NCBI RefSeq assembly: GCF_003334385.1
Contig: NZ_QOWN01000106.1
From: Escherichia coli
Lineage (GTDB): Bacteria; Pseudomonadota; Gammaproteobacteria; Enterobacterales; Enterobacteriaceae
Direction: 5' to 3' (one strand)
DNA length: 1,950 nucleotides
In this document: positions 1 through 558 of the stretch, piece by piece
Position numbering within the stretch: the first letter of the stretch is position 1
Layout: each line of letters begins with the position of its first letter
Position numbers and translations under genes: made by a program
The notes under the pieces: generated by a model
Seen by the model: only the letters and a program-made list of their open reading frames with translations
What the model was told of the DNA's origin: nothing
The model's database searches: none

Positions 1-234
1 GCTGCCGCGAAAGCAGGAATACTGCCGGAGGGTTTTTTCTGGACGGATGCGGAGAATAACGACGTCCCGATGACGGCTGGGGAGCTGATGGCACTCAGTG
101 AGGCGGCGGAGAAGGCGATGTTCACCAAAGGGATGGAAATTCATGTCAGACAGCGCACGATGAAAAAAGAGATTGAAGCGCTGGGTGATGCGGAAGCTAT
201 ACTGGCGTATAAGGTCGGCATGGCTGACAGGTGA
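1..234 (+). CDS. 3' end (77 codons plus stop) of a phage tail-fibre-region accessory protein with a DUF4376-like C-terminus; the 5' end lies outside the window
   Basis: Frame 1 is open from base 1 to TGA at 232-234. Translation: AAAKAGILPEGFFWTDAENNDVPMTAGELMALSEAAEKAMFTKGMEIHVRQRTMKKEIEALGDAEAILAYKVGMADR. GC is 33/60 in bases 1-60 (hand count). The W-x-D-x-x-N-x-x-V-x-x-T-x-x-EL pattern followed by an A/E-rich helical tail resembles DUF4376 domains seen in phage tail-fibre regions; this is from memory, not searched. It is probably absent from the ORF track because it is truncated and under 80 aa. Confidence 0.75.
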   Translation, partial: AAAKAGILPEGFFWTDAENNDVPMTAGELMALSEAAEKAMFTKGMEIHVRQRTMKKEIEALGDAEAILAYKVGMADR

Positions 235-260
235 AAAAAAGAGGGGCGCTCCAGCCCCTT
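234..260 (-). terminator. Rho-independent terminator oriented for minus-strand transcription (T0), convergent with the upstream + strand gene
   Basis: The minus strand reads AAGGGGC-TGGAGC-GCCCCT-C-TTTTTTT. The stem is 6 bp and GC-rich (242-247 with 254-259, plus a possible G241.T260 wobble) with a 6-nt loop, followed by 7 T (complement of A234-A240). On the + strand the hairpin is followed only by TGCTAC, with no T-run. Confidence 0.6.
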
Positions 261-361
261 GCTACAAAGCTATGGCTAAATAAAGAATACTCAGGTCGAG
301 GAAATGATCTGGCAATGATAATTAAAGGAGATGCAACGGCCTCCTTCACCCCTGTCAAAGA

Positions 362-388
362 TAAAAAACTGGGGAGTGCGTGCTCCCC
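362..388 (-). terminator. Rho-independent terminator oriented for minus-strand transcription (T1)
   Basis: The minus strand reads GGGGAG-CACGCA-CTCCCC-AG-TTTTTT-A. The stem is 371-376 with 383-388, the loop is 6 nt, and the 6-T run is the complement of A363-A368. Confidence 0.6.
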
Positions 389-456
389 GAGAGCATGATA
401 CTTGTGGTTGATAGTTATTTTTATCCGGCGACAAAGATATTGAGATGAGGTCGCGG

Positions 457-483
457 ATGCAATACAGAATTTTCGTATTGCAT
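457..483. promoter_or_regulatory. 9-bp perfect inverted repeat ATGCAATAC-N9-GTATTGCAT enclosing most of 16-mer copy 1 (operator-like site or RNA hairpin)
   Basis: Bases 457-465 are the exact reverse complement of 475-483, and the spacer is agaattttc. Copy 2 of the 16-mer lacks equivalent arms. Confidence 0.45.
462..477. repeat. Copy 1 of an exact 16-nt direct repeat, ATACAGAATTTTCGTA
   Basis: It is identical to 639-654, 177 bp away. The flanking bases differ on both sides (a461 vs g638, t478 vs g655). Confidence 0.9.
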
Positions 484-530
484 GGTAACTGCTGATTCCT
501 GAAACTGAAAGTCGTCATGAAACTGTAAGC

Positions 531-558
531 GAAAAAACGGGGAGACGGCACGCTCCCC
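531..558 (-). terminator. Rho-independent terminator oriented for minus-strand transcription (T2)
   Basis: The minus strand reads GGGGAGCG-TGC-CG(T)CTCCCC-G-TTTTTT-C. The outer stem is 539-544 with 553-558, the inner pairs are C546-G552 and G547-C551, and A545 is bulged. The 6-T run is the complement of A532-A537. Confidence 0.6.

Follow-up and report, generated by a model that had tools for sequence, protein, structure and literature searches.

The small RNAs (sRNAs) AgvB, AsxR and EcOnc03 are unusually short (51-60 nt), are bound by Hfq, adjoin moron sites of lambdoid prophages and are antisense to late transcription (Tree et al. 2014, PMC4104026). These anti-sRNAs of Shiga toxin (Stx) phages rewire host sRNA networks (GcvB, FnrS). 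The Pas sRNAs (PasA-D) of enteropathogenic Escherichia coli (EPEC) prophages (Zhu, Shabalina & Storz, bioRxiv 10.64898/2026.05.13.724894) are likewise prophage-encoded and terminator-ended; they vary by single-nucleotide polymorphisms (SNPs), terminator loss and copy number, and some variants were judged to be pseudogenes from terminator loss. Here, we analyzed a window of 1,950 nucleotides of E. coli DNA (NCBI RefSeq assembly GCF_003334385.1, contig NZ_QOWN01000106.1) that contains the junction between a tail-fibre-assembly-like gene (tfa) and the adhesin gene eib in Eib prophages. The 807-bp spacer between the two genes, where RefSeq annotates no feature, carries three hairpins, T0, T1 and T2, numbered from the tfa stop codon onwards (Table 1); T1 and T2 are probably the terminators of two tandem sRNA genes of about 62-66 nt, unit 1 and unit 2, antisense to the late operon. 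Whereas the Pas sRNAs are located in the Q/sialic-acid-esterase/lysis region of prophages and occur in more than 1000 genomes, the window module is present in 27/5426 complete E. coli genomes; the Pas sRNAs are likened to the window units by description, not by sequence.

Analysis of the three hairpins showed the features of canonical Rho-independent terminators, that is, a GC-rich stem of 6-7 base pairs, 5 of them G-C, a loop of 6-8 nt, a predicted fold of -11.6 to -12.5 kcal/mol and a U-tract directly after the stem, with 7, 6 and 6 T (for T0, T1 and T2, respectively) starting 0-2 nt from the stem on the minus strand and none on the plus strand. In the consensus scan, T0 was called with a stem at 259→242, the tail CTTTTTTT and a 7-U tract at 240→234, T1 with a stem at 388→371, the tail AGTTTTTT and a 6-U tract, and T2 with a stem at 559→538, the tail TTTTTT and a 6-U tract. 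Between positions 225 and 700, the scan made 5 calls on the minus strand (3 of them independent and strong), compared with 0.5 ± 0.7 in dinucleotide shuffles, and none on the plus strand. The plus-strand 3' flanks of T0, T1 and T2 (TTGCTACA, GAGAGCAT and AAGGTCAT, respectively) contain no T-run, so that none of the three hairpins classifies as a bidirectional terminator. A Carafa-type score, of which only the differences between orientations were used because the absolute d-scores are uncalibrated with modern energy parameters, placed the minus orientation ahead by 21-45 units for every hairpin.

These results agree with the preliminary description of the locus, which had noted three leftward-facing hairpins, each with an A-run on the plus-strand 5' side and no T-run on the 3' side; terminator prediction on both strands, a check that it proposed, called all three on the minus strand only (-11.6, -11.6 and -12.5 kcal/mol). 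Judged from their sequence, T0-T2 are true Rho-independent terminators that face leftward (on the minus strand) and, as terminators, are ordinary. T0 resembles the boundary terminators of convergent genes in being located at a gene end, whereas all three hairpins differ from canonical and convergent boundary terminators in that they are strictly one-directional, the plus-strand U-tract being absent. Tandem late-operon terminators, the t'J cluster, are reportedly known from phage lambda (they are said to have been described by Luk and Szybalski in 1983); these, too, follow one another close to where the tail-gene region of a lambdoid phage ends, but are said to act on rightward late transcription, whereas T0-T2 face the opposite way.

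The protein genes flanking T0-T2 are co-directional; any RNA that ends at these hairpins must therefore be either non-coding or antisense. In the source prophage, there is no minus-strand gene downstream of eib, several kb being all plus strand, so that the terminated RNA must start in the spacer or antisense within eib; this result argues against a gene of the moron region as the source of antisense transcription that had been supposed. Small proteins encoded in the spacer (open reading frames (ORFs) of 20-91 aa) were also considered and rejected: these ORFs run across the terminators or have no ATG in other alleles, and the two copies of a 16-nt box (Table 1) are read in different frames. 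Given the absence of a downstream minus-strand gene and of a credible spacer ORF, the leftward RNAs would have to be short, non-coding and local.

To compare the spacer with known prophage sRNAs, we took the sequences of AsxR, AgvB and EcOnc03 from Tree et al. 2014 (Figure S4, PMC4104026) and aligned each published RNA, from the -10 element to the core, with both strands of the whole window (Smith-Waterman, 300 dinucleotide shuffles). The best match of AsxR was on the minus strand at 597→568, 9 nt 5' of the T2 stem, with a score reached by 0/300 shuffles (p < 0.003). The best match of EcOnc03 was at minus 425→392, 3 nt 5' of the T1 stem (p = 0.067), and that of AgvB was at minus 592→565 (p = 0.057). 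In the reciprocal searches, unit 2 matched AsxR itself in the 933W stx2 locus (p < 0.005) and AgvB in a third phage, L190 (p = 0.015), and unit 1 matched EcOnc03 itself in the Stx1-phage locus (p = 0.015). A covariance model, built only from AsxR, AgvB and EcOnc03 and roughly calibrated, ranked unit 2 first in the window (593→532, 12.0 bits, E = 0.039) and unit 1 second (418→363, 9.9 bits, E = 0.11), both over the full model length and with the hairpin skipped as an insertion. Over 314 kb of other prophage DNA, the model matched only units 1 and 2 up to E = 10, and the P-EibA copy of unit 1 was the top match in the 314 kb (12.9 bits).

The alignments are in register from the start-proximal region to the U tail. 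On the minus strand, AsxR reads TTTCGATTATTAAA--ACGAGTATCTCATGCAATT, followed by the hairpin GCCCGAACCCACTCGGGC and the tail TTTTTT, and unit 2 reads TTTCGACTATAAAAACACCACTATCTCATGTATGACCTT, followed by GGGGAGCGTGCCGTCTCCCC and GTTTTTT; EcOnc03 reads GATAAAAATGACAAT-----GCAAGTATCTCATGCTGTT, followed by GCCCGAACCCACTCGGGC and TTTTTTTT, and unit 1 reads GATAAAAATAACTATCAACCACAAGTA--TCATGCTCTC, followed by GGGGAGCACGCACTCCCC and AGTTTTTT. Start-proximal TTTCGA(T/C)TAT.AAAAC is common to the family and unit 2, and GATAAAAAT.AC.AT to the family and unit 1; a core of the form (A/C)(G/C)TATC(TC)ATG, located 3-10 nt before a GC hairpin with its U tail, is recognisable in all. Of the core GUAUCUCAUGC 5' of the hairpin, unit 2 has CUAUCUCAUGU (9/11), and unit 1 has AGUAUC--AUGCU, from which 2 nt are deleted; the two versions keep their register with the hairpin. 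The units further resemble the AsxR family in being predicted units of about 60 nt that end in a terminator, are located in the prophage late region beside a moron and are directed against late transcription. They lie antisense to the late strand beside eib, but at the tail end rather than after pR', that is, at the tail-fibre-assembly/eib junction whereas the AsxR family is found in the pR'-stx/nanS-p region. Homology of units 1 and 2 to the anti-sRNA lineage is likely on these grounds, and the similarity to AsxR, AgvB and EcOnc03 just 5' of T1 and T2 is the reason why these two terminators probably end two tandem sRNA genes. The transcription, start points, Hfq dependence and regulatory targets of the units are properties that we infer from the DNA alone.

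With respect to promoters, the putative promoter of unit 1 was read by analogy with the EcOnc03 locus and was not called by the promoter scan. In the Stx-phage loci L188 (546-575), L189 and L190, the -35 element TTGCGC of AsxR, AgvB and EcOnc03 is located in the 3' arm of an upstream hairpin, which is itself a late-strand terminator. The putative -35 element of unit 1, TTGCAT, is similarly located in the 3' arm of the palindrome at box 1, a parallel that is perhaps coincidental.

The allele set comprised 66 related sequences, 52 of them distinct over positions 1-1060; a metagenome scan added 47 copies, and no covariation test was possible because all of these are 83-100% identical to the window. 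Searches for wider homologues yielded no confirmed locus in a GTDB protein-pattern scan and only chance matches in unrelated phyla in a GTDB 18-mer scan. An intact T0 stem is found in 65/66 sequences and an altered loop in 8; the most divergent allele combines a changed loop with a preserved stem (-12.6 kcal/mol). T1 is present in every structural form of the locus and is intact in 54/66 sequences. T2 is intact in 30/66, decayed in 14/66 (-2.8 kcal/mol) and deleted in 22/66 sequences; all but one of the 22 carry the 114-bp deletion of 459-572, and the exception, the metagenome allele L129, has a deletion that runs exactly from one 16-nt box to the other. The 114-bp block is absent from P-EibA-type alleles, with GAT microhomology at the junction, and there are at least three structural forms of the locus, produced by deletion. 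As a mobile repeat or miniature inverted-repeat transposable element (MITE), the block was rejected: searches of E. coli genomes, phages and plasmids turned up copies at Eib loci only. The interval between T1 and T2 (480-530) exists as two sharply different haplotypes. That of the window has a direct repeat TCCTGAAACTGAAAG/TCATGAAACTGTAAG; haplotype B (L006, L008-L010 and, partly, L005; alignment columns 280-312) contains a GC-rich hairpin, CCGGCAAC-TGAAT-GTTGCCCGG, neither side of which bears a T-run.

When nucleotide diversity (pi) was compared along the same alleles, the hairpins were no less variable (0.045-0.054) than the tfa coding sequence (0.048). The 5' region of unit 1 together with its putative promoter (391-450) has a pi of about 0.002, the lowest value in the spacer to the left of position ~640 and ~20-fold below that of the adjoining spacer and coding DNA. 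In the T2-decayed alleles, the putative -10/start region of unit 2 (AATTAT-tcttt-CGAC) is altered as well, the -10 reading AGCCAT. The decay of T2 together with this region, along with the low diversity of 391-450, fits gene-like behaviour. In the form with the 459-572 deletion, the putative -35 element of unit 1 is removed.

Several observations weigh against the assignment of T1 and T2 to sRNA genes. The homology scores are modest (E of 0.04-0.1, and p of about 0.06 for two of the three forward alignments), and the core 12-mer alone, with up to 3 mismatches, is no rarer than expected by chance. With Rfam, the whole window gave no match at E ≤ 1, and 225-700 gave nothing beyond noise at E ≤ 10; the AgvB (RF02702) and AsxR (RF02703) models found the control loci and failed to find the window even at E ≤ 10, although these models are narrow, as EcOnc03 itself only just passes (56.6 bits, threshold 56). 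The family hairpin GCCCGAACCCAYUCGGGC, within the ~42-nt conserved 3' region, is replaced in the units by GGGGAGCACGCACUCCCC and GGGGAGCGUGCCGUCUCCCC, and the terminator hairpins are unrelated (GGGGAGC...GCTCCCC vs. GCCCGAACCCAYTCGGGC). The units also differ from the AsxR family in being tandem copies and in having no convergent STnc100-like (RF02076) partner, which was not matched in the window. The promoter scan of 225-700 detected no sigma-70-like site, and the promoters assigned by analogy match at only 7/12 positions. Direct alignment of units 1 and 2 revealed no significant similarity between them, nor did it support recent duplication (the ~63% identity in an initial MAFFT alignment was not significant). 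Duplex prediction did not place pairing of either unit with GcvB or FnrS above shuffles; this test is weak since, of the two controls, AgvB-GcvB was recovered (z = -2.5) and AsxR-FnrS did not stand out. Finally, a C→A mismatch in the T1 stem weakens its fold to -7.1 kcal/mol in 12/66 sequences (18%), and there are no compensatory stem changes in T0-T2 among the 66 sequences, the diversity of which is too low for covariation.

Some of these observations would also be expected if the hairpins were neutral relics, either scars of module exchange or decayed sRNA genes carried along with eib, and looked conserved only through recent divergence of the Eib prophages. The confinement of the 235-876 module to Eib-type prophages, the low overall diversity, the structural forms produced by deletion, the lack of compensatory changes, the weak promoter matches and the clear decay of unit 2 in many alleles are all compatible with this explanation. 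It does not readily account for the 5' region of unit 1, so much less variable than its neighbours, for a T0 stem kept while the loop changes, or for the retention of T1 and T0 in every structural form, and we consider it unlikely, although worth bearing in mind.

Unlike T1 and T2, T0 is not associated with a recognisable sRNA-like unit: a third such unit upstream of T0 was considered and rejected, the ~100 bp 5' of it on the minus strand not being significantly similar to unit 1, unit 2, AsxR, AgvB or EcOnc03. To examine the ends of related tfa genes, we mapped the stop codons of the DUF4376 tfa genes of 123 loci and sorted the sequences that follow them into 18 junction classes. Within 45 nt of the stop codon, 9 classes have a leftward terminator, 4 a bidirectional one (truly bidirectional terminators are present, e.g., in GER2/L042, L054 and L099), 1 a rightward one and 4 none. 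Several of the leftward and bidirectional terminators are unrelated in sequence to one another, i.e. belong to non-homologous junctions. In phage 1720a-02, the tfa-end terminator faces leftward dinI-like and integrase genes, and in the adhesin locus of PhiR12_3 (L041), a homologue of this terminator is retained, with the adhesin moron inserted just beyond it. In the tfa-adhesin junction of L082 (2923-3005; also L083, L090 and L093), which is unrelated in sequence to the window and lacks an AsxR-like core, there are two serial leftward terminator-like hairpins (2938→2923 and 3005→2989); the Eib module is thus not alone in having multiple leftward terminators at this hot spot. T0, lacking a unit of its own and matching a recurrent feature of tfa stops, fits a boundary or backstop terminator and is best read as marking the right-hand end of the tail module. 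The seven A's of T0 (234-240) begin with A234, the last base of the TGA stop codon (232-234), as the preliminary description had stated; this exact coincidence is a property of the window allele rather than a rule, the run beginning 2 nt past the stop codon in the divergent allele L004/L021. A further, weak hairpin between T1 and T0 (323-348) is stronger, with 8 bp, in the divergent allele.

The recurrence of leftward terminators at tfa ends, along with the position of T0 at the stop codon, makes a barrier to antisense transcription reasonable for T0. That all three hairpins form a stacked, redundant insulator against antisense transcription from the adhesin or moron region, with no RNA genes attached, as originally proposed, appears to us rather improbable. 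The three hairpins do share one direction within 330 bp, and a minus-strand promoter-like site at 777→749 (TAGTCA-17-AATAAT), invariant in all alleles, could feed leftward transcription. However, the triple insulator is not a maintained design because T2 is decayed or deleted in 36/66 sequences and T1 weakened in 12; the hairpins are no more conserved than the flanking coding DNA, and other tfa-adhesin junctions have one, two or no terminators. Moreover, known sRNA genes align in register with the DNA 5' of T1 and T2, and these two hairpins are better explained as the ends of AsxR/AgvB/EcOnc03-like units than as redundant insulators. It is very improbable that the hairpins act instead in plus-strand RNA, as 3'-exonuclease barriers or processing sites that, in late transcripts reading through from the tail genes, stabilise the tfa message or separate it from eib: they fold equally well there (-12.5 to -13.6 kcal/mol), T0 directly follows the stop codon and, the scan having no plus-strand terminator before 707, late transcripts should contain all three, but the 6-7-nt A-run is present on the 5' side only, is not needed by a stabiliser and is the hallmark of a minus-strand terminator, and its asymmetry recurs in non-homologous tfa junctions.

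On balance, we lean slightly towards the explanation that the hairpins are leftward terminators of two kinds, T1 and T2 closing two short anti-sRNA-like units and T0 serving as a boundary terminator. Under this explanation, T2 would close leftward unit 2 (~594→532) and T1 leftward unit 1 (~427→363), and each unit would be built like the Hfq-dependent prophage anti-sRNAs AsxR, AgvB and EcOnc03, from a single-stranded 5' region, an (A/C)(G/C)UAUC(UC)AUG core, a GC hairpin and a U tail. The units would adjoin the eib moron in the prophage late region and be directed against late transcription; unit 1 would have been kept in all alleles, and unit 2 would vary between alleles, from an intact gene to a pseudogene or a deletion. 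T0 would stop leftward read-through, whether past T1, from 777→749 or from another leftward promoter upstream, at the final base of the tfa stop codon, an arrangement that has arisen repeatedly at the ends of the tfa gene family. A more specific proposal, which we put forward tentatively and with some doubt, is that Eib prophages carry tandem anti-sRNA-type genes, one conserved and one decaying, of AsxR/AgvB ancestry with new 5' specificity regions and new terminators, which would act as Hfq-dependent sponges of core sRNAs other than GcvB and FnrS, and/or as cis-antisense RNAs against late read-through into eib.

Table 1 Features of the window, in order of position.
Feature	Positions	Strand	Basis and remarks
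tfa, 3' end (DUF4376/tail-fibre-assembly-like; orf-191 of P-EibA)	1-234	+	ORF list, annotations of homologous loci, protein alignment
T0, intrinsic-terminator-like hairpin	234-259; stem 242-247/254-259, loop 248-253	-	Scan; fold -11.6 kcal/mol
Weak AAGGAG/CTCCTT hairpin between T1 and T0	323-348	-	Scan; fold -9.5 kcal/mol, z only -0.9
T1, intrinsic-terminator-like hairpin	363-388; stem 371-376/383-388	-	Scan; fold -11.6 kcal/mol
Unit 1, predicted sRNA of ~65 nt (GGAUAAAAAUAACUAUCAACCACAAGUAUCAUGCUCUC + T1), EcOnc03/AgvB-related	363-427	-	Start placed by homology only
Putative weak promoter of unit 1	434-462	-	-35 TTGCAT 462-457, 17-nt spacer, -10 TATCTT 439-434
114-bp indel block holding T2 and box 1	459-572		Alignments; BLAST break points w458/w573
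Box 1, exact 16-nt direct repeat ATACAGAATTTTCGTA	462-477		Repeat search, fold; loop and arm of 9-bp palindrome
T2, intrinsic-terminator-like hairpin	532-559; core stem 539-544/553-558	-	Scan; fold -12.5 kcal/mol
Unit 2, predicted sRNA of ~62 nt (CGACUAUAAAAACACCACUAUCUCAUGUAUGACCUU + T2), AsxR/AgvB-related	532-594	-	Start placed by homology only
Putative -10 element of unit 2, AATTAT	600-605	-	5 nt before CGAC start; aligned with TAAAAT-gattt-CGAT of AsxR
Box 2 of the 16-nt repeat ATACAGAATTTTCGTA	639-654		Repeat search; almost invariant, pi = 0.002
Candidate plus-strand terminator	708-771	+	51-nt hairpin 708-758, then TTTCTTCTTTTTG; invariant in all alleles
eib, 5' part (YadA-like immunoglobulin-binding adhesin)	1042-1950	+	P-EibA and RefSeq annotations

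The preliminary description had also supposed that the plus strand has no terminator before the adhesin gene. This is doubtful in view of the invariant 708-758 hairpin, which has a 12-bp stem AUCAGAUUGUGCU/AGCACAAUUUGAU with an outer 4-5 bp (-17 to -19 kcal/mol) and is followed by TTTCTTCTTTTTG; the consensus scan missed it because its loop is 14 nt, and an uncalibrated Carafa-type score places the plus orientation ahead of the minus orientation by 55 units. A plus-strand terminator at 708-771, located between the tail gene and the control region of eib, is plausible from these features; alternatively, as the 777→749 promoter-like site of the minus strand overlaps it, the element could be an operator. 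In the DNA adjoining this hairpin (686-707), the 11-bp sequence (G)TC(C/A)TTCAATG is present in two tandem copies in the window and some alleles and in one copy in others. The two 16-nt boxes are 177 bp apart in otherwise poorly similar DNA, and the palindrome at box 1, ATGCAATAC...GTATTGCAT, has a fold of -10.2 kcal/mol (z = -3.2). Closer to eib, at 901-938, there is a perfect 11-bp inverted repeat GAAATTCCGAA/TTCGGAATTTC with a 16-nt spacer (-13.8 kcal/mol, z = -3.4), for which the P-EibA record annotates only 'stem_loop'; it may be a site for a regulator of eib because the ~170 bp upstream of eib in which it lies recur, with sequence divergence, in other tfa-adhesin loci. Immediately before the adhesin start codon (1008-1023; ~3180-3195 in L042), a palindrome-like motif TTGTATACA(G/A)A is kept across otherwise diverged adhesin loci and is perfect in phage GER2 (TTGTATACAA); its role may be that of an operator, or it may belong to the eib promoter.

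In the 27 complete genomes, the tfa-eib junction is often present in several prophages per genome; it was further found in 8 phage records, 47 gut-metagenome contigs and a number of IMG/VR contigs, and was found neither in plasmids nor in GTDB species representatives. Other tfa-adhesin loci have only the part immediately upstream of eib (~876-1045) in common with the window, which makes 235-876 a separate module specific to the Eib prophage group. A search of the window for tRNA and transfer-messenger RNA (tmRNA) genes yielded none. The records of PhiR5_2 and PhiR12_x annotate hypothetical proteins inside the spacer (L007 3421-3570 and 3624-3773; L008-L010 3231-3398 and 3529-3654), on strands that differ between records; these ORFs traverse the terminator hairpins and are probably miscalls. 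Papers on Eib expression do not mention the upstream spacer, and a literature search revealed no report of a transcript from the tfa-eib spacer.

For annotation, the implication of this analysis is that an 'empty' 800-bp spacer probably holds candidate RNA genes. Should the units be silent, what remains is a set of ordinary directional terminators at the boundary of a prophage module. If they are expressed, prophages that carry the Eib adhesin would also deliver sRNAs of the Stx-phage anti-sRNA lineage. The anti-sRNA family would then extend to prophages of commensal and non-O157 Shiga toxin-producing E. coli (STEC), the tail-fibre end of the late operon would be a second moron hot spot for anti-sRNA genes, and the intact, decayed and deleted copies would form a natural series for the birth and loss of such genes.

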